Source: an uncultured Actinomycetota bacterium
Lineage (GTDB): Bacteria > Actinomycetota > Actinomycetes > Actinomycetales > Cellulomonadaceae
Reading direction: 5' to 3'
Length of the DNA: 64,000 nucleotides
Assembly (NCBI GenBank): GCA_963807045.1
Contig: CAWDZL010000002.1
Location: 1,664,118-1,728,117, forward strand
Below are positions 11,371-34,664 of this stretch, one piece after another. Positions within the stretch are counted from its first letter, which is position 1. Each line of letters opens with the position of its first letter. The notes below the pieces were generated by a model that worked only from the letters and a program-made list of their open reading frames with translations, searched no databases and had not been told where the DNA came from. Both the position numbers and the translations under genes were made by a program.

Positions 11371-11871
11371 TCAGTCGTCGCCGCCGGAGGCCATGAGCTC
11401 GCGCAACGCCTCGACCACCAGGGCGTGGTCGTCCTCCTGGGCCAGTCCGGAGACGGTCACGGTGGCGACCATCCCGACGTCGCGCACGCGCACCGGGAAG
11501 CAGCCCCCGTGCGCGGCGAACCTGCGCTCGTCGAACCATGCCTCGTCCTCGATCCGGCGGCCCGCCAGCTGCGGGCGGAGGCCGATGAGGAAGGACGGCA
11601 CCCCGAACCGCTGCACGGCGCGGGTCTTGCGGCGCACCCAGTCGTCGTTGCTCTCGGCGGTGCCCTCCATGGCCAGGTGGAAGATCACCTGCATGCCCCG
11701 GGTGACGTCGATCGTCACGGGCAGGCCGCGGTCGACCGCGTAGCGGTGCAGGATCAGGCCCAGGCGGTGCGCGTCGCCGTTGGTGAACCGCTCGAGCTGC
11801 AGCTCCTCGAGCTCTGCCTCGATCTCGCGGACCTTCGCCTCGAGCTCCGGCGCCGGTGTCTGCTCGGTCAT
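11371..11871 (-). CDS. heme-degrading/UPF0303 (DUF336-like) domain protein
   Basis: 166 aa, similar to the UPF0303/GlcG-like family. Confidence 0.65.
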   Translation of the reverse strand: MTEQTPAPELEAKVREIEAELEELQLERFTNGDAHRLGLILHRYAVDRGLPVTIDVTRGMQVIFHLAMEGTAESNDDWVRRKTRAVQRFGVPSFLIGLRPQLAGRRIEDEAWFDERRFAAHGGCFPVRVRDVGMVATVTVSGLAQEDDHALVVEALRELMASGGDD

Positions 11872-12073
11872 CGACGTCCTCTCCGTCCGGGCGCTGCCGT
11901 CGCGTTCCTACCGGCAGCGCTGTCCTCGCCAGTATCGCGCTCGGACCCCGACGCTCCGCTGCAGCGAAACGTGCGTATGGCGACGGGTTCGCGAGAGGCC
12001 GCCCCCGGTCCGCACGAACATGCACCCGCTGTGCGCGCGACAGTTGTGCGCACAGCGGGTGGACGCGCGCAGG

Positions 12074-12198
12074 GCGCGGCGTGGCGTGGCGGGGCGTGGC
12101 GTGGCGGGGCGTGGCGTGGCGGGGCGGGGCGTGGCGTGGCGGGGCGTGGCGCGGCGTGGCAGGGCGGGGCGGGGCGCGGCGGGGCGCGGCGTGGCAGG
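12074..12198. repeat. 15-bp tandem repeat GGCGTGGCGTGGCGG: about 4.5 near-perfect copies followed by degenerate copies
   Basis: Read directly in the sequence. The repeat is intergenic, between the heme-degrading gene and the small membrane protein. It translates as GVAWR repeats in one frame. Confidence 0.85.
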
Positions 12199-12641: not shown

Positions 12642-13349
12642 CTACGCCTGCTCGCGCGTGATCGGCGGGATGAGCGCCGTCGTACGTCCCCGGCGGTAGA
12701 GCGTGGCGGGCCTGCCGGGCCCGTCGATGAGGGTGTGTCCGGTGTTCTCGAGCAGGCCCGGCGTCGAGGTCACCTTGCGGTGGAAGTTGCGCGGGTCGAG
12801 CGTGACGCCCCACACCGCCTCGTAGACGCGCCGCAGCTCGGAGACGGTGAACTCCGGCGGGCAGAACGCTGTCCCGAGCGAGGTGTACTCGAGCTTCGCG
12901 CGCGCCCGCTCGACGCCGTCGCGCAGGATGGCGGGGTGGTCGAAGGCGAGGTCGTCCGCCAACGCCTCCGCCACGGGGACCCAGTGCGCGGCGGCGGCGT
13001 CGCCACCGGCGTGTGGGTCCGGCAGCCGCGGGGCCATGACCAGGTACGCGACCGAGACGACGCGCATGCGGGGGTCGCGGTCCGGGCCGCCGTAGGTGCC
13101 GAGCTGCTCGAGGTGGGCGGGGATGCGGCGGACGCCGGTCTCCTCGGTCAGCTCGCGCGATGCCGCCCGCGCGAGGTCCTCGTCCGGCCGGACGAACCCG
13201 CCCGGTAGCGCGCGGCGTCCGGCGAACGGCTCCTCGCCGCGCGTCACGAGAAGAACCTGCAGGGCGTCGTCGCGCACGGTCAGCACGACGAGGTCCACGG
13301 TGACCGCGAACGGGGGGAAGGCGCCGGCGTCGTAGGCGGGTGTCGTCAC
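12642..13349 (-). CDS. nrtR: NrtR-type Nudix hydrolase/winged-helix transcriptional regulator
   Basis: Nudix box (GGFVRPDEDLARAASRELTEETG) plus the NrtR-type C-terminal domain (EFTVSELRRVYEAVWGVTLDPRNFHRKV). Confidence 0.75.
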   Translation of the reverse strand: MTTPAYDAGAFPPFAVTVDLVVLTVRDDALQVLLVTRGEEPFAGRRALPGGFVRPDEDLARAASRELTEETGVRRIPAHLEQLGTYGGPDRDPRMRVVSVAYLVMAPRLPDPHAGGDAAAAHWVPVAEALADDLAFDHPAILRDGVERARAKLEYTSLGTAFCPPEFTVSELRRVYEAVWGVTLDPRNFHRKVTSTPGLLENTGHTLIDGPGRPATLYRRGRTTALIPPITREQA

Positions 13350-13362
13350 GACTGGAGGCTAT

Positions 13363-13413
13363 CTCGTCAACTTGACGAGAACAAGCCGTGCCGGATATCG
13401 TCATGGCGACGAG
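13363..13413. promoter_or_regulatory. two palindromic candidate operator sites sharing the half-site TCGTCA (cTCGTCAAcTTGACGAg and aTCGTCAtggcGACGAg) in the nrtR/SPFH divergent intergenic region
   Basis: Inverted repeats read directly in the 91-bp intergenic region. The second one overlaps the SPFH RBS region. Confidence 0.45.
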
Positions 13414-13440
13414 AAAAGATCCGACCCCCAGGAGGCGGTC

Positions 13441-14472
13441 ATGGCCACCATCACGCGCTACCCGTTCCTGCGGCACCTGCGTGCCGCCCCCACGTCGCAC
13501 ATCCTGCACCTGCGGGCCGGGACGGTCCGGCACGACGGCGCGGGGCAGGCCTTCTGGTTCCGGCCTCTCACGGCCGTCATCAGCGAGGTCCCGGTCGACG
13601 ACCGCGAGCTGCCGCTCGTCGCTCATGCGCGCACGGCAGACTTCCAGACCGTCACCGCGCAGCTCACCGTCAGCTACCGGTTCGACGACCCGACGCTCGT
13701 CGCCCGGCGTCTCGACTTCGCGATCGACCCCGGCACCGGGGCCTGGACGGGCACACCGCTCGAGCAGGTCGCCCACCTGCTCGGCGAGCTCGCCACCGGG
13801 CAGGTGATCGACGCCGTCGCGCGCCTGACCCTCGTCGAGGCGGTCGTCGCCGGGCCGGAGCTGCGGCGCGCCGTGACCGCCGGGCTCCAGGACGACCAGC
13901 GCCTCGCCGCCACCGGGATTACGGTGCTCGGCGCACGCGTCGGCAGCGTGCGCGCGGAGGCCGACATGGAGCGGTACCTCCAGACGCCGGCGCGCGAGGC
14001 CGCGCAGGGCGAGGCCGACAAGTCGACCTTCGAGCGGCGGGCGCTCGCCGTCGAGCGGGAGCGCGCCATCGCCGAGAACGAGCTCGCCAACCGCATCGAG
14101 CTCGCCGGCCGCGAGGCCGAGCTCGTGACCCAGGAAGGTGCCAACGCCCGCACGCGGGCCGACGAGGCGGCCGCAGCGGCGCTCATCGAGGCCCGGGCGG
14201 AGGCCGAGCGGGCCGAGCTGCAGGCCCAGGCGACGGCCAACGGTCGGCGCGTGGTGGGCGCGGCCGAGGCCGAGGCCGAGGCGGCCCGGCTCGCCGCCTA
14301 CGGAACCGTCGATCGTGGCGTCCTGCTCGCGCTCGCGCTGCGCGACCTGGCCGAGAACCTGCCGGCCGTGGGCAGCCTGACCGTCACCCCGGACCTCCTG
14401 ACGGGCGCGCTCGCCGGGCTCCTCGGAACGGGCGCGGGGCCGGCCGCCGACGCCGCAGCAAGGGGACGCTGA
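13441..14472 (+). CDS. SPFH/band-7 domain protein with coiled-coil C-terminus
   Basis: AGGAGG RBS before ATG 13441. SPFH core followed by an ERRA/EAE-rich coiled coil. Confidence 0.75.
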   Translation: MATITRYPFLRHLRAAPTSHILHLRAGTVRHDGAGQAFWFRPLTAVISEVPVDDRELPLVAHARTADFQTVTAQLTVSYRFDDPTLVARRLDFAIDPGTGAWTGTPLEQVAHLLGELATGQVIDAVARLTLVEAVVAGPELRRAVTAGLQDDQRLAATGITVLGARVGSVRAEADMERYLQTPAREAAQGEADKSTFERRALAVERERAIAENELANRIELAGREAELVTQEGANARTRADEAAAAALIEARAEAERAELQAQATANGRRVVGAAEAEAEAARLAAYGTVDRGVLLALALRDLAENLPAVGSLTVTPDLLTGALAGLLGTGAGPAADAAARGR

Positions 14473-14473
14473 T

Positions 14474-15385
14474 ATGGCCACCCCCCGGGTCGTCGTCGTG
14501 CACCGCCGCACCGAGTTGGAGGAGCTGCTGGACCGGCACGGCACGCGCGGGCAGGCCGAGTTCTTCCTGCGCACGCGGGGTCGCACCCTGGCCGCGGCGC
14601 AGGAGCGGCACGATGCGCAGGTCGCGGCGCTCGCGGACGTGCGGGCGGCGATCCCGGGGGACTGGCGGCGCGGTGATGTCGAGCGCGGCGACCTGCACCG
14701 GTTCGCCTTCGAGCCCGGGGACGTGTGCGTCGCCGTCGGGCAGGACGGGCTTGTCGCGAACCTCGCGAAGTACCTGGTGGGGCAGCCGGTCATCGGCGTC
14801 GACCCGGAGCCCGGTCAGAACCCGGGCGTGCTGGTGCGCCACCATGCCGGGGCGGCCGCGCGGCTCCTGCGCGCGGCCGGGGCCGGGCCGATGGCGGTCG
14901 ACGAGCTTGCGATGGTGACCGCGGCGCTCGACGACGGCCCCCGGCTCGAGGCGCTGAACGAGGTCTTCGTCGGGCACGTCAGTCACCAGTCGGCCCGGTA
15001 CCGGCTGCTGGCGCCCGGGGGTGCCGGCGAGGCGCGTGGGGAGGGGGAGCGGCAGTCGTCGTCGGGCCTCATCGTCGCCACGGGAACGGGCTCGACCGGC
15101 TGGGCGGCCTCCATCGCCCGCGACCGCGGTGCCCCGGCGACCGCCCTACCGCGCCCGACGGATCGCCGTCTGGCGTGGTTCGTCCGGGAGGCGTGGCCGT
15201 CGCCCGCCACGGGCGTCACGCTGACCGGCGGCGCGCTCGCCGAGGGTGAGGCGCTGACCATCGTCGTGGAGTCGGACGCGCTGGTCGTGTTCGGCGACGG
15301 CCTCGAGGCGGACCGGCTCACGGCGACCTGGGGTCAGACCGTGACCGTCGCGCTGGCCGAGCGCACCTTGCGCCTGGTGAGGTGA
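14474..15385 (+). CDS. divergent NAD kinase (PpnK/ATP-NAD kinase) family protein
   Basis: NADK motifs are present in altered form: GQDG in place of GGDG, NEVFV, and SSGLIVATGTGSTGW. The ATG lies 2 nt after the SPFH stop. Confidence 0.7.
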   Translation: MATPRVVVVHRRTELEELLDRHGTRGQAEFFLRTRGRTLAAAQERHDAQVAALADVRAAIPGDWRRGDVERGDLHRFAFEPGDVCVAVGQDGLVANLAKYLVGQPVIGVDPEPGQNPGVLVRHHAGAAARLLRAAGAGPMAVDELAMVTAALDDGPRLEALNEVFVGHVSHQSARYRLLAPGGAGEARGEGERQSSSGLIVATGTGSTGWAASIARDRGAPATALPRPTDRRLAWFVREAWPSPATGVTLTGGALAEGEALTIVVESDALVVFGDGLEADRLTATWGQTVTVALAERTLRLVR

Positions 15386-29635: not shown

Positions 29636-29902
29636 CTTCGTTCCCTTCCCCCCAGGCGGGCCCGCGGGCAGCTCTGCCTGCGGGCGCGAGCGCACGGCAC
29701 CGCGCGCCCCCGAGGTGGCAGCGCGCGATGCCACGGCGCCGCAGAACAATTGGTATCAAACTCTGGCAATTCGTGCATCTGCACGTGTCACCTCGTGGCG
29801 GTGATTCTGCTCCGGGCTACCCGCGGCGCGCCACCAGCCGCCCGGCGACGCCGACGCCGTTCCGCCGTCGGGACCTGCACCTGCCGGCGTGAGACCGGAC
29901 GG

Positions 29903-30886
29903 TCAGTCGGCAGTGGCGCCGCAGCCGGCGGCCGCCGGCTCGGTCCCGGCCTCCGCCGCGACCACGGCGAGGCCCTCCGGCGTCGGCGGCTCGGACTCGA
30001 CGGCCGGTGCGCGGCGCGAGGCGAGGGCGGATCCCGCGAGGACGAGCACGAACCCGGCCGCGGTGAGCCAGGTGATCGGCTCGTCGAGCACGATCGCGCC
30101 GGCCGCGACCGCCACCGCCGGGTTCAGGTAGGTGACGAGCGTGCTCCGCAGGGCGCCGACCTCGGCGACCAGGGCGAAGAAGAGCATGAGCGCCGCGGCG
30201 GTGCAGATCAGACCCAGCCCGACAGCGGACGCCGTGACGCTCGCCGACGGCCATCGGTCCGGAGCGTGGGCCACGCCCGGGACCGCGTAGATCGCGGTGG
30301 CCGTGAGCAGGCTGAGCGCGATGACGCCCGTGGCGGGCGCGTCGGCGAGGTGGCGCGCCATGATCACCGGCCCGATGGCGTAGCAGAGGATCACGACGGC
30401 GAGCTCCCCGACGGCCTGCGCCTCGCCGCCGCCGCTCGTCGCGCCGCTCTCGAAGCCGACCAGCAGCGCCACGCCCGCGAAGCCGATGCCCAGCCCGAGC
30501 GCCCCGCGCGCGCCGAGGTGCTCGCTGCGGCGGGTGACCAGGGCGATCACGACCCCGACGATCGGCACCCCGGCGATGAGCAGGCCGGTCAGCGAGCTGG
30601 GCAGGTGCCGCTCGGCGTCGGTCAGGAAGAACCACGGCAGCACGATCTCGATCACGGCGTAGACGACCACCGCGCGCCAGTGCCGCAGTGCCCCGGCGAG
30701 CGCGCCCCGGGAGACCGCGAGCGGCACCATGACGAGGGAGGCGATGACGACGCGCGACAGGACGAGCGTCGTCGGGTGCAGCTCGTCGACGGCGATCTTG
30801 ATCAGCAGGTAGGGGATGCCCCACGCGACGCCGAGCCCCGCGAACAGAAGGAACGCGCGGCTCGAGCGGTGGTCGGCAGAGGTCAC
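29903..30886 (-). CDS. EamA/DMT superfamily transporter
   Basis: Ten TM helices with two EamA repeats. GTG start at 30886. The upstream extension of the track ORF runs through palindromic element 1. Confidence 0.75.
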   Translation of the reverse strand: MTSADHRSSRAFLLFAGLGVAWGIPYLLIKIAVDELHPTTLVLSRVVIASLVMVPLAVSRGALAGALRHWRAVVVYAVIEIVLPWFFLTDAERHLPSSLTGLLIAGVPIVGVVIALVTRRSEHLGARGALGLGIGFAGVALLVGFESGATSGGGEAQAVGELAVVILCYAIGPVIMARHLADAPATGVIALSLLTATAIYAVPGVAHAPDRWPSASVTASAVGLGLICTAAALMLFFALVAEVGALRSTLVTYLNPAVAVAAGAIVLDEPITWLTAAGFVLVLAGSALASRRAPAVESEPPTPEGLAVVAAEAGTEPAAAGCGATAD

Positions 30887-30906
30887 CGGGCAACCCTGCG
30901 GACGTG

Positions 30907-31060
30907 CCCCCACCCCCGTCAACCCCGCCGTCCCCCCCGCCCCCCCGCGCGCAAAGTGGAGCGAACGGCACGCGACACGCTGGCGTGTCGGTGCCGTTCG
31001 CTCCACTTTGCGGATGGAGAGGGGGTCAGGTGAGGGTGGGGGGTGACGTGGGGGTCCAGT
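30907..31060. repeat. nested palindromic element, copy 1 (C-rich arm, then 30-bp stem hairpin GCAAAGTGGAGCGAACGGCACGCGACACGC/revcomp, then G-rich arm)
   Basis: Read in the sequence. The core is 30951-31011. The right arm overlaps the 3' end of the flotillin CDS. Confidence 0.85.
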
Positions 31061-32975
31061 TGCGGAGAGCACCCGTGAGGGTTGCGGCCAGGCCCGTGAT
31101 GGCGCCCGTGTCGTTCCCGCCCACCATCACGTCCGGCACGATCTTGACGTGCCCGTCCGCGACGGCCGCAGCGATCGCGACCGCCGACGTCGCCTGCTGC
31201 CCGATGGCGGCCACCTGGGCCTCGTAGCCCGCCGCCTTCGCGAGCCCGAGCGCCTCCGTCGCCTTCGCCTCGGCCAGACCGATCGCCCGACGGCGGTCCG
31301 CCTCGGCCTCACCGGTCTTGCGGACGAACGCCGCCTCGCCGTCGGCCTGCGCGGTGCGGGCCGAGGCCTCCGCCTTCTGGATCTCGACGTTGACGTTCGC
31401 CTTCGCGAGGTCCGTCTGCATGTCGGCGGTGCCGCGGACGCGCTCGAGGTCGACACGCACCTCCTGGGCGCGCTTCTGCTCCTCGTACGTGACCCGTTCC
31501 TGGTTCGCGATCTCACGCTGGGTGAGGACGGCGACCAGCTCCGGCGGGAAGATCACGTCCTGCACGTAGACGCCGCGTGTCTCCACCTCGTACCCGCTGA
31601 GGTACCCGGTGATGTACTGCTGCGCCTGCGCCTGCACGGTGTCGCGGGTCTCGATGAACTGCACGGCCGGCAGCTGCTGGAGGGCGTTGCGGAAGTAGTT
31701 GCCCACCGCGGACTGCAGCACCTCGTTGACCAGGTTCTGCATGGTGCCGACCATCGAGATGACCTTCGGTGCTCGGCTGTCCGAGACGTGGATCTGCACC
31801 TGCAGGTCGATGCCGAAGACGAAGCCCTCACGCGACTTGCCGTCGATCGGGCTCAGCGCTTCGTCGAGGTTGTGCGCCGCCGAGGTCGTGTTCGCCCAGT
31901 TCAGCGTGATGATCGACGTCGGGACGAGCTCCGCCGCGTAGACGCGCGGGTTGATCGCGAACTTGCCGGTGCGCAGCGGCTCGTTCCAGATGCCGCGGTG
32001 GCCGGGCCGCACGATGGAGCCGAACTTGAAGTCCGCCCCGGACGTGTCGACGGTCGGGAGACCGACGTACGCCTTGATGACGGCGACCTCGCCCTGCCGG
32101 ACGACGAGCATCGGCACCAGCTCGACACGCACCAGGAACGGGTTGAGCAGGTACGAGCCGTACAGCAGCGGGTCGTGCTGGAGGCCGATGCGGCCGCCGT
32201 TGTCCAGGAACGCCTGGTAGTCCTGGTAGTTGTTGTGGACCCCGTTCTTGCTGGACAGGATCGCCTCGATCTTCTCGCTCTCCGTCGCACCGGCGGCCTC
32301 GAGCGCGGCGACGTCCTCGAACCCGCCGAGACGGCTGGCGATGTCGCTGCCCTCGGGCGCCTCGCCCTCGAGCGTGGTCACGACGCCGATGACGTCCTGA
32401 CCCTGCTGGGGCGCGATCACCGTCACGCGGAGCTGCTGGGGGAGCAGGCCGAGCGACTCGGGCGACGTGACCTGGTGGCCGCCGGCCTGCTGGATGGGCA
32501 CGCCGTACAGGCGGCTGGCCGTGAGCACGACGAACGCCAGGGGGTGCAGCGGCAGCAGCGTGCCCGGGGGCAGCACGGGCCGCTGGATGCCCTTCTGGCC
32601 ACCCTCCGCGAGGAACCCTGCGAGGTCCGTGAAGTTGCCGAACGACGGCTTGTACGCGGCGCTCTTGGCGCCGATGGGCAGGGGAGCGCCGAGCTGGGCG
32701 ATGACGACGCCGATCTCGCCCGGGTTGACCTGCACCCACGGGTGCTTCGTCACCGAGAAGACGGGCCACAGCTTGAAGCGCAGGCCGGGCATGAGGAGGC
32801 GGGCCTGGTAGCCGGCTTCCCCGTTGAACGCGATGGCCTGGTCGCCCTTGAGGCGCCGGCCGAGCCGCTTGTTGACGAGACCGACCTCACTCGCGCCGAT
32901 GAAGCGGAATGACGCCAGGAGGACGAGGAGCACGACGGCTCCGGCAACGATCCCGGCGATGACGCCAGGTGTCAT
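31026..32975 (-). CDS. flotillin-like SPFH/band-7 protein (YqiK-like)
   Basis: A 649-aa protein with an N-terminal TM, an SPFH domain, and a long EA-rich coiled coil (flotillin region). The C-terminal PT-rich tail is encoded by the repeat arm. Confidence 0.8.
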   Translation of the reverse strand: MTPGVIAGIVAGAVVLLVLLASFRFIGASEVGLVNKRLGRRLKGDQAIAFNGEAGYQARLLMPGLRFKLWPVFSVTKHPWVQVNPGEIGVVIAQLGAPLPIGAKSAAYKPSFGNFTDLAGFLAEGGQKGIQRPVLPPGTLLPLHPLAFVVLTASRLYGVPIQQAGGHQVTSPESLGLLPQQLRVTVIAPQQGQDVIGVVTTLEGEAPEGSDIASRLGGFEDVAALEAAGATESEKIEAILSSKNGVHNNYQDYQAFLDNGGRIGLQHDPLLYGSYLLNPFLVRVELVPMLVVRQGEVAVIKAYVGLPTVDTSGADFKFGSIVRPGHRGIWNEPLRTGKFAINPRVYAAELVPTSIITLNWANTTSAAHNLDEALSPIDGKSREGFVFGIDLQVQIHVSDSRAPKVISMVGTMQNLVNEVLQSAVGNYFRNALQQLPAVQFIETRDTVQAQAQQYITGYLSGYEVETRGVYVQDVIFPPELVAVLTQREIANQERVTYEEQKRAQEVRVDLERVRGTADMQTDLAKANVNVEIQKAEASARTAQADGEAAFVRKTGEAEADRRRAIGLAEAKATEALGLAKAAGYEAQVAAIGQQATSAVAIAAAVADGHVKIVPDVMVGGNDTGAITGLAATLTGALRNWTPTSPPTLT

Positions 32976-33140
32976 GGTGATGCACCGATCCTTCAGTCAG
33001 GTGTGCGCCTCGTGGCGCGCCCCGAGAGTGTGGCACCGAGATCATCCGCCGCGCGGGCCTTTCCGGGAGCCGGCGGACACCCTCCCGGGAGCCGGACGCC
33101 GCCCTTCCGGGAGCCGGACAAGCCCGATCCGTGAGCCGGA

Positions 33141-33268
33141 CGGGGGAGTCCCTCCTCTCCCCGCGGTTCCTCACGCAAAGTGGAGCGAAGTGCACCGACA
33201 CGCCAGGCGTGTCGGTGCACTTCGCTCCACTTTGCGGACGAAGGGGGGTGGGGGGCTAGGGGTGGGGG
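33141..33268. repeat. nested palindromic element, copy 2 (perfect 30-bp stem GCAAAGTGGAGCGAAGTGCACCGACACGCC/revcomp)
   Basis: Core at 33175-33235. The G-rich arm encodes the C-terminal HVPHP of the ABC ATPase. Confidence 0.85.
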
Positions 33269-33834
33269 ACGTGGACGAGCGGGGCGGCCAGGGCGTCGGC
33301 GTCGGCGCGTTCGTGGGTGACCAGCAGCATCGTGCGGCCGCCGTGGGCCTCGCGCAGGTGCGCCACCGCAAGCTCGCGCGAGGCGACATCGAGCCCCGCG
33401 AACGGCTCGTCGAGCACCGTGAGCTCGGCGCGGACCAGCAGTGCGCGGGCCAGCGCCACCTTGCGCCGCTGCCCGCCGGACAGCTCCCGCACGGGCTTGC
33501 GCAGCGCGTCGTCGTCCAGGCCGAGCGCCCGCAGCTCGGCGACCACGGCCTCGGCGTCGGCGGCCCGACCCAGCACCAGGCGCACGTTGCGCACGGCGCT
33601 GAGCTGACCGCACAGCCGGTCCTCCTGGAACGCCGCCGCCCGTCGCCGCGGAACCCCGCGCACCTCGCCGGCGTCGGGCGTCTCGAGGCCCAGCAGGAGC
33701 CGGCCGATCGTCGTCTTGCCGCTGCCGTTGGGACCCATCAGGGCCGTCACGACGCCGTCGGGCAGCGTCAGGTCCAGCCCGTCGAGGACCACCTGGTCGC
33801 CGTAGCGCTTCGTCACCCCGCGCAGCTCGATCAC
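33256..33834 (-). CDS. ABC transporter ATP-binding protein (NitT/TauT-like)
   Basis: GPNGSGKTT, LSGGQRRK, LDEPFAGLD. Its GTG start overlaps the permease stop (GTGA). Confidence 0.8.
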   Translation of the reverse strand: MIELRGVTKRYGDQVVLDGLDLTLPDGVVTALMGPNGSGKTTIGRLLLGLETPDAGEVRGVPRRRAAAFQEDRLCGQLSAVRNVRLVLGRAADAEAVVAELRALGLDDDALRKPVRELSGGQRRKVALARALLVRAELTVLDEPFAGLDVASRELAVAHLREAHGGRTMLLVTHERADADALAAPLVHVPHP

Positions 33835-34664
33835 GCCGCCGCCTCCGTCCCGGAGGGGGGCGCGACCGGCGTCGGGCGCCCAACGGCCAGTCGTCGCTCG
33901 GCGCGGCCCAGCAGCGCGACCAGGCCCTTCTCGAACCCGTAGCTCGCGGCGATGATCACGGCGGTCCAGGCGAACAGGTCGGCGCTGGAGAGGAAGAGCT
34001 TCGCCTCGTAGAGGCGTTCGCCGATGCTCCCGTCGGGCAGCCCGATCACCTCCGCCGCGACGCCGCTCTTCCAGGCGAGCCCGACGCCGAGGCGGCACGC
34101 GGCGAGGAAGAAGGGCAGCACGGCGGGCACGTCCACGGCGGTGACCCGCCGCACGAGCGGCACCTCGAAGACCGTCGCCATCTCCAGGAGCGCGCGATCG
34201 CGGTGCCGGATGCCCTCCAGCACGGTGACGTACGCGACCGGCAGCACCATCAGGAACGAGGTGATCGCGGCGAGCTTGCCGCTGTCGGCCACGAGCAGCA
34301 CCAGGATGATGAAGCTGACGACGGGCGCCGCGCGCACCGCGACGAGGAACGGCGTCAGCAGGGCGTCGGCGACCCGCGACCAGGCGGCGAGGGCCGCGAG
34401 CACGACGCCGACCGCCACGGCGAGCGCGAAGCCCACCGTGATGCGCGCGAACGAGAACCACACCGTGGACCAGAAGTCCGCCGTCGGCACGAGGTCGACG
34501 AGCCGCTCCGCGACGTCAGCAGGCGGGGCGAAGAGGAAGTCGTGCCCCACCCAGGCCGCGACGAGCTGCCAGACGGCCAGCCAGAACACGACGACCCCCA
34601 GGAGGCGCAGTGCCCCCCGGGGGTCGCGACGTGTGCGACGGTCAGCCGGCGAAGTAGAAGTCAT
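33831..34664 (-). CDS. ABC transporter permease (NitT/TauT-like)
   Basis: Six TM helices. The start (Met 34664 versus 34682) is uncertain. Confidence 0.7.
   Translation of the reverse strand: MTSTSPADRRTRRDPRGALRLLGVVVFWLAVWQLVAAWVGHDFLFAPPADVAERLVDLVPTADFWSTVWFSFARITVGFALAVAVGVVLAALAAWSRVADALLTPFLVAVRAAPVVSFIILVLLVADSGKLAAITSFLMVLPVAYVTVLEGIRHRDRALLEMATVFEVPLVRRVTAVDVPAVLPFFLAACRLGVGLAWKSGVAAEVIGLPDGSIGERLYEAKLFLSSADLFAWTAVIIAASYGFEKGLVALLGRAERRLAVGRPTPVAPPSGTEAAA

Follow-up and report, generated by a model that had tools for sequence, protein, structure and literature searches.

Layout and spread of the nrtR, nrtX and nrtY genes

The window analyzed here, by which the whole 64,000-nucleotide stretch of contig CAWDZL010000002.1 is meant, derives from a high-GC actinobacterium, and its proteins have their closest named relatives in Cellulomonas and Pengzhenrongella. 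Between positions 12642 and 15385 it contains a gene for a group-2b-type NrtR, a regulator composed of a Nudix domain and a C-terminal winged helix (nrtR; 12642-13349, minus strand, 235 aa, GTG start), and, divergent from it, a two-gene operon. The first gene of the operon encodes a 343-aa SPFH/Band-7 protein with a Pfam Band_7 match (13441-14472, plus strand), and the second a 303-aa protein with an NAD-kinase fold of the NADK2/NADK3 type (14474-15385, plus strand). They are equated here with nrtX and nrtY, respectively, of Rodionov et al. (2008; NAR 36:2047, PMC2330246), whose Table 1 contains the entries nrtR2<#>nrtX-nrtY for the group Actinobacteria-2b and nrtR<#>nrtX-nrtY for Proteus mirabilis (Gammaproteo-1a), both with the pathway given as "?", and whose main text assigns neither domain identities nor a function to nrtX and nrtY. 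The ORF of nrtX spans 13372-14472, but its true start is the ATG at 13441, which is preceded by AGGAGG at 13430-13435; from there, the protein equals the public gene call P0386 in length, and its homologues align from residue 1. The start codon of nrtY follows the TGA of nrtX after a single nucleotide. The original prediction for this locus, nrtR divergent from a tightly coupled pair of genes with the three identities given above, is thus borne out by Pfam for nrtR and nrtX, by the fold match for nrtY and by the 1-nt distance between stop and start.

To define how far this arrangement extends, 80 actinobacterial loci were fetched, each encoding a relative of the kinase-like protein (from Micrococcales, Propionibacteriales, Mycobacteriales, Streptosporangiales, Kineosporiales, Jiangellales, Frankiales, Geodermatophilales, Glycomycetales and Acidimicrobiia). 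In 79 of them, the kinase-like gene is immediately preceded by the SPFH gene, the one exception being located at a contig edge, and a divergent nrtR is present in 67. The gap or overlap between nrtX and nrtY does not exceed 14 nt in any locus. Irrespective of whether the flanking genes of the window were used as tblastn queries or ORFs of the 80 loci were clustered de novo, no further conserved neighbor emerged, the next cluster being represented in 13 of the 80 loci. Outside the Actinobacteria, Clostridium, Paenibacillus, Magnetococcales and Planctomycetes have the pair but no nrtR with it, the Band_7 gene lying immediately upstream with gaps of 1-4 nt or small overlaps. On a Rhizobium etli plasmid, a gene for a NUDIX protein (minus strand) is divergent from an SPFH gene followed by a "sugar kinase" gene; altogether, 63 plasmid records had a match (42 from Rhizobium; 21 conjugative). 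The SPFH partners from all of these taxa, as well as those from P. mirabilis and the actinobacterial loci, align end to end. When clustered at 90% identity, the NrtY family yields at least 8,000 clusters, and at 50% identity at least 1,521 representatives (E ≤ 1e-3). Co-occurrence of the two genes, on which the original prediction hinged, is therefore conserved, within the actinobacterial loci as well as across several phyla.

P. mirabilis H110 links the locus to the 2008 catalogue most directly. There, nrtR (minus strand) is divergent from genes for an SPFH protein (338 aa) and a kinase-like protein (315 aa, with GQDG), both homologous to the proteins of the window, which means that the module had already been catalogued in 2008. 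The other entries were reproduced as well: nrtR is linked to the pair in Kineosporia and in a Frankiaceae metagenome-assembled genome, as it is in P. mirabilis, and is unlinked, with operators present, in Streptomyces and Kitasatospora. The locus of the window is, consequently, an instance of the nrtR<#>nrtX-nrtY divergon and not categorically new. The view that it is not a described module holds for its function, listed as "?", and fails for its existence and regulation. In the literature searched, no later paper used nrtX/nrtY in this sense, so that the entry apparently was not followed up, and none combined SPFH proteins with NAD kinase. Two side observations concern the P. mirabilis records: NZ_OL790812.1 and NZ_OL790811.1 (the latter being the H110 locus), held as "plasmids" in PLSDB, measure ∼4.08-4.09 Mb and are evidently whole chromosomes, and in strain H110 nrtY is directly followed, on its downstream side, by tet(J) and a TetR-family gene.

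Operators and promoter of the divergon

The control region shared by nrtR and nrtX (13350-13440, 91 bp, intergenic) contains the two palindromes reported initially, which were delimited here as 21-nt copies of a predicted NrtR operator, each with a GT-N7-AC core and 34 bp apart. The distal one (13361-13381; ATCTCGTCAACTTGACGAGAA) holds the perfect palindrome CTCGTCAA-C-TTGACGAG; the proximal one (13395-13415; ATATCGTCATGGCGACGAGAA) is centered 36 bp upstream of the nrtX ATG. Allowing for at most one mismatch, TCGTCA-N3-TGACGA matches the window only at these two positions (0.20 matches expected). With up to two mismatches there are 20 matches, compared with 3.6 expected from shuffled sequences; all 18 additional sites have exactly two mismatches and probably reflect the codon composition of coding sequence rich in GAC, GTC and TCG rather than further members of a regulon. 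Two copies of the operator (consensus TTATCGTCA-N3-TGACGATAA) are present in 66 of the 67 loci in which nrtR is divergent; they are spaced by 34 bp in 31 cases and by 45 bp in 17. The gene pair of Kitasatospora, Streptomyces and Actinomadura, which has no nrtR beside it, is likewise preceded by operator sites, and GT-N7-AC repeats are visible in the intergenic region of P. mirabilis. Both the consensus of the 66 loci and the two sites of the window agree with the NrtR operator as published, which is a palindrome of 21 bp with GT-N7-AC at its core (PMC2330246).

A promoter scan of the region returned one site (0.0 in shuffled sequences), a putative sigma-70-type promoter of nrtX-nrtY (13372-13401, plus strand) consisting of TTGACG, an 18-nt spacer and TATCGT. 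Its −35 element (13372-13377) is part of the distal operator's right arm and its −10 element (13396-13401) of the proximal operator's left arm. In the two-site loci, TTGAC occupies the −35 position of the distal operator in 66 of 66 cases and the equivalent position of the proximal one in 16 of 66, and TANNNT follows 16-19 nt after the distal TTGACN in 62 of 66. Operators built into the promoter in this way are a signature of repression by promoter occlusion, a mode of action that the promoter consensus and its conservation suggest for NrtR at this site.

Three further observations were made on the control region. The mRNA of nrtR may be leaderless (13349-13384, minus strand): a −10-like TAGCCT precedes the GTG of the gene by 6 nt and a −35-like TTGTTC lies 17 nt further upstream, with the distal operator filling the spacer; these elements were read by eye, the site being below the threshold of the promoter scan. 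The distance between nrtR and the SPFH gene, elsewhere ∼90-160 bp, is 350-830 bp in two loci (L044 and L063). In L044, an apparent small ORF is inserted after the operators, and in L063, one operator-like site lies beside nrtR and two more beside the SPFH gene.

Properties of the three proteins

NrtR has an N-terminal Nudix-fold effector domain (Pfam NUDIX, 5.7e-21, residues 21-143) and a C-terminal winged-helix DNA-binding domain (NrtR_WHD, 1.2e-15, residues 162-219), and can be aligned throughout its length with NrtR from Shewanella (PDB 3GZ5, 7.5e-29) and AraR from Bacteroides (PDB 5BS6, 1.5e-29). Against the NCBIfam equivalog model NF050029 (NtrR) it scored 134.4 bits, below the cut-off of 400, and it belongs to a subgroup other than the one on which that model was trained. 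A PADLOC search returned only a weak Nudix match (PDC-S07, 4e-4). The Nudix box, GX5EX7REUXEEXGU, is unbroken (GGFVRPDEDLARAASRELTEETGV, residues 50-73), as it is in ∼56 of 61 distinct boxes of the orthologues. An unbroken signature correlates with ADP-ribose (ADPR) pyrophosphatase activity, for example in NuhA, whereas degenerate signatures are found in the pure regulators Slr1690 and SO1979, the two NrtRs tested, for which ADPR proved the most effective anti-repressor in vitro (PMC2330246). NrtR of the window therefore probably hydrolyzes its ligand besides sensing it.

NrtX matches Pfam Band_7 (PF01145) with 4.8e-11. Its AlphaFold2 (AF2) model (mean predicted local distance difference test score, pLDDT, 84) begins with β strands at the N-terminus and continues with the SPFH domain; a single helix of ∼116 residues (174-289) follows, and the short C-terminus carries a conserved TPD motif. 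No relative of known structure was found in the PDB with sequence profiles, and the protein is placed by fold comparison only; Foldseek matched it to stomatin, erlin, HflK/C, prohibitin, flotillin, QmcA and the major vault protein (MVP), all of which build rings or cages. Some of the vault entries are described as bound to PARP4, ADP and ADP-ribose; the vault is another anchor-less, SPFH-like cage tied to NAD/ADPR chemistry, which for NrtX may serve as an analogy only. The original prediction regarded NrtX as a membrane scaffold acting in microdomains. This is unsupported because NrtX has no hydrophobic anchor: neither a transmembrane nor a hairpin segment was detected (the maximum Kyte-Doolittle mean over 19 residues is 1.35), and the N-terminus is modeled as β strands. 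NrtX is probably soluble, although it may attach to the membrane peripherally; small prokaryotic subfamilies, SPFH8 and SPFH9, had likewise been predicted to be soluble (Hinderhofer et al, 2009; PMC2636767). An NfeD partner, as in the SPFH1/2/5 type, is missing, the sole conserved neighbors in the 80 loci being the kinase-like gene and nrtR.

NrtY is not recognized by Pfam, NAD_kinase included, even at E = 10, nor does it exceed the threshold of any NAD-kinase model of NCBIfam (PRK04761, 18.9 bits; cut-off 211). With phmmer, human mitochondrial NADK2 was found among PDB sequences (1.7e-6). The AF2 model (pLDDT 92.9; predicted template modeling score 0.89) has the two-domain NAD-kinase fold, the top 50 PDB chains retrieved by Foldseek all being NAD kinases, with human NADK2 as the best match (7r4l, 5e-18, TM 0.73), followed by the enzymes from Pseudomonas, M. 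tuberculosis and Listeria. What had been perceived as an extra N-terminal region is not an appended one: the fold is complete over all 303 residues, the N-domain consisting of β1 (5-10), three helices (14-59) and β2 (65-70), and in the model the three helices are read as an elaboration of that domain.

The register of the three motifs was fixed by aligning NrtY with E. coli NadK (hhalign). GQDG (89-92) corresponds to GGDG, N162-E163 to NE and QSSSGLIVATGTGSTGW (194-210) to QRSDGLIISTPTGSTAY, the region II motif of NrtY being SSSG-x5-TGTGSTGW (195-210). In 43 diverse members of the family, G89, D91, G92, N162, S195-S197, T203, G204, G206 and W210 are invariant, T208 shows at least 90% conservation, and N162 always precedes E or D. 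The assignment to an atypical NAD-kinase family with GQDG in place of GGDG was thus correct, and the replacement is a property of the whole family, which has G-[QPRLIVHA]-DG: its second position is never glycine, while the aspartate and the glycine after it do not vary. In region II, Asp-189 of Ppnk corresponds to Ser-197, its Thr-200 to Thr-208 and its Tyr-202 to Trp-210, so that the threonine is retained. NrtY keeps four of the five Ppnk residues compared, and the fifth, Tyr-202, is tryptophan as in the active human C5orf33/NADK2, where serine and tryptophan replace Asp-189 and Tyr-202 (PMC3535332). The position of Arg-175 in E. coli NadK, or Gly-187 in Ppnk, governs whether NAD or NAD(H) is accepted, small or polar residues going along with NADH acceptance; in NrtY it is occupied by an invariant serine, which hints that NADH may be accepted.

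Elsewhere in the window, a motif search (GGDG[TS] and TxTGS[TS][AG][YW]) detected no canonical NAD kinase, with nrtY itself as the only hit. The second SPFH paralogue announced by the original prediction (ORF 31026-32975, minus strand, 649 aa) is confirmed by a Band_7 match (2.6e-18). The position of the match, residues 291-504 of 649, indicates that the ATG start of this ORF is probably set too far upstream. The adjacent ORFs 32993-33883 and 29817-30971 (both minus strand) have no Pfam match, and no NfeD-type partner was seen there; nothing supports a link between this flotillin-like protein and the nrtX-nrtY module. Beyond the 3′ end of nrtR, the stretch of ∼770 bp up to an HbpS-like gene (11371-11871, minus strand) contains a tandem GGCGT array (12073-12195; 24.6 copies, or 8.2 copies of a 15-nt unit) and no convincing gene.

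Interpretation and relation to known systems

The data are best reconciled by assuming that nrtY encodes an accessory, ADP-ribose-derepressed enzyme of the NAD(H)-kinase type that works with an oligomeric SPFH partner, an overall reading that we place just on the probable side. Its regulatory part is the firmest, and we are confident that NrtR controls nrtX-nrtY. As the operators overlap the −35 and −10 elements, NrtR, bound at the distal site over the former and at the proximal site over the latter, would repress the operon and probably also its own gene. By analogy with the NrtRs tested, ADP-ribose accumulating as a product of NAD consumption would release NrtR from the DNA, and, given the unbroken Nudix box, NrtR would probably hydrolyze the ligand and thereby reset the switch. 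NrtX and NrtY would then be made together by virtue of translational coupling. A functional partnership of the two is reasonably probable: NrtX, lacking an anchor and probably forming a ring or cage, may scaffold, regulate or enclose the enzyme. NrtY itself, as a second kinase of the NADK2/NADK3 type, would most likely phosphorylate the adenosine 2′-OH of NAD(H) or a very close analogue, since the catalytic aspartate, NE/D and the region II threonine are retained; for NAD(H) proper, this assignment is tentative and falls slightly short of probable. A more far-reaching version, in which NrtX forms a free or peripheral cage (vault- or HflK/C-like) that encloses or gates NrtY as an ADP-ribose-inducible compartment for NAD(P) chemistry, with the NrtY clade perhaps being the closest prokaryotic relative of the NADK2/NADK3 lineage, is speculative and rather unlikely.

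Several points weigh against this interpretation. The second glycine of GGDG is never conserved and the family falls below the Pfam and NCBIfam thresholds, so that an altered donor or acceptor, or lost catalysis, is possible. AraR, a family relative of NrtR, responds to arabinose. The genes were equated with nrtX and nrtY on the basis of the arrangements in P. mirabilis, Frankia, Kineosporia and Streptomyces, not of gene identifiers. Finally, one metagenomic representative (P0183, 574 aa) is an apparent SPFH-kinase fusion, in which the TP(D/E) motif of the SPFH part is joined to the first helix of the kinase; the first β strand of the kinase is missing and the fusion may be a deletion artefact, which is why fusions are given weak weight as Rosetta-stone evidence for contact between NrtX and NrtY. 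A second long SPFH-kinase protein, P0131, is not a fusion but a frameshift artefact.

If the G-x-DG change, which affects the phosphate-binding loop throughout the family, were accompanied by a change of substrate, NrtY could be an active kinase for an acceptor other than NAD(H), converting ADP-ribose to 2′-phospho-ADPR or nicotinic acid adenine dinucleotide to products resembling its phosphate (NAADP), or could use an unusual phosphoryl donor, and the operon would process the very signal of NrtR. We regard this as unlikely, though less so than the other alternatives. It would fit the failure of every curated NAD-kinase model to recognize the family, the control by an ADPR-type sensor with no grouping with NAD biosynthesis genes, and the retention of a canonical nadK for NADP synthesis by a host such as P. 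mirabilis. However, the residues that bind NAD as the acceptor are all kept (NE/D, Thr and an aromatic residue for Tyr-202 as in NADK2), and characterized NAD kinases do not evidently act on ADP-ribose, AMP or ADP (PMC8553519). Loss of the canonical GGDG could also mean that NrtY is a pseudokinase, a non-catalytic NAD- or ADPR-binding subunit gating assembly or opening of an NrtX cage, with the pair acting as a stress effector. The constant pairing with a cage-type SPFH protein, with nothing else conserved nearby, would agree with this, as would, by analogy only, the vault, a soluble SPFH-like cage, among the structural matches of NrtX, including its PARP4- and ADP-ribose-bound entries. Invariance of the catalytic aspartate, the following glycine, Asn-162 and the region II residues in 43 members is, by contrast, a pattern typical of a working active site and renders a pseudokinase improbable.

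A role in anti-phage defense or abortive infection, in which NAD depletion would be sensed via ADPR released by TIR- or SIR2-type NADases and answered via NrtX and NrtY, was suggested by the sensor type of the regulator, the variable neighborhoods and the occasional plasmid location (63 records, 21 of them conjugative). Many of these records are very large, however (0.2-1.2 Mb; that of P. mirabilis, at 4.09 Mb, is chromosome-sized), the neighborhoods inspected are metabolic, transport-related or regulatory and devoid of defense genes, neither NrtX nor NrtY homologues from three lineages have a match in PADLOC-DB v2, and only two relatives were found among 2.9 million viral contigs. The link to defense raised in the original prediction thus finds no support, and we consider it very improbable. 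That the kinase-like gene is the housekeeping ppnK/nadK, its adjacency to the SPFH gene and nrtR being incidental, is effectively refuted. Some sources do annotate relatives as "NAD kinase", but BLASTP aligned NrtY with E. coli NadK over 20 residues only, adjacency is maintained in 79 of 80 actinobacterial loci and in several phyla, and the P. mirabilis H110 record, in which nrtY is located at 3.28 Mb, also holds, at a distance of 580 kb (2.70 Mb), a canonical nadK (74% identity to E. coli NadK). The presence of both genes in one genome makes NrtY a second paralogue and, together with its non-canonical motifs, agrees with the original view that it is not an ordinary ppnK orthologue.

Reviews credit bacteria with a single NAD kinase (PMC8553519, PMC9245612). 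The NrtY family is a widespread second protein with this fold, present in several phyla and always tied to an SPFH partner; it is linked to NrtR in three lineages, and a sensor of the ADP-ribose type would tie it to the consumption of NAD, not its synthesis. For SPFH biology, a rare handle would be gained, namely an enzyme partner with an easily assayed reaction and an SPFH protein that is probably soluble. NrtY may also bear on the origin of mitochondrial NADK2-type kinases.

Among the characterized regulators, NrtR resembles Shewanella SO1979 (3GZ5/3GZ6/3GZ8) and Synechocystis Slr1690 in the combination of Nudix domain and winged helix, in full-length similarity, in the 21-bp palindromic operator with its GT-N7-AC core and in the overlap of operators with promoter elements. 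It differs in that its targets are not genes of NAD biosynthesis or salvage and in its unbroken Nudix signature, which is degenerate in both SO1979 and Slr1690. NrtX shares the SPFH domain, the very long helix and the short conserved C-terminus with HflK/C, QmcA-YbbJ, stomatin, flotillin, prohibitin and erlin but, unlike these, has no membrane anchor, no NfeD and an NAD-kinase-fold enzyme as its operon partner; the absence of a transmembrane segment is shared with SPFH8/9. NrtY and canonical NadK/PpnK (EC 2.7.1.23) share a fold of two domains, and their three motifs are in register, whereas identity in Foldseek structural alignments is only ∼12-20%, and NrtY has the second glycine replaced and does not reach the profile thresholds. 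Human NADK2/C5orf33 (7R4J-M, 7N29), considered together with plant NADK3, is its best match in both structure and sequence: serine and tryptophan occupy the positions of Ppnk Asp-189 and Tyr-202 in either protein, and NE/D and the catalytic aspartate are kept. In contrast to NADK2, NrtY has G-x-DG instead of GGDG and threonine at the position of Lys-317, and it is a bacterial protein of the cytosol whose gene is always found next to one for an SPFH protein. With the divergon of Rodionov et al. (2008), finally, the locus shares the divergent nrtR, a two-gene operon of "?" function and predicted NrtR sites in the common control region. To that entry, marked "?" since 2008, the SPFH and NADK2-type gene-family and fold assignments, the architecture of two operators built into a promoter, the spread across phyla and the paralogy to nadK are now added.

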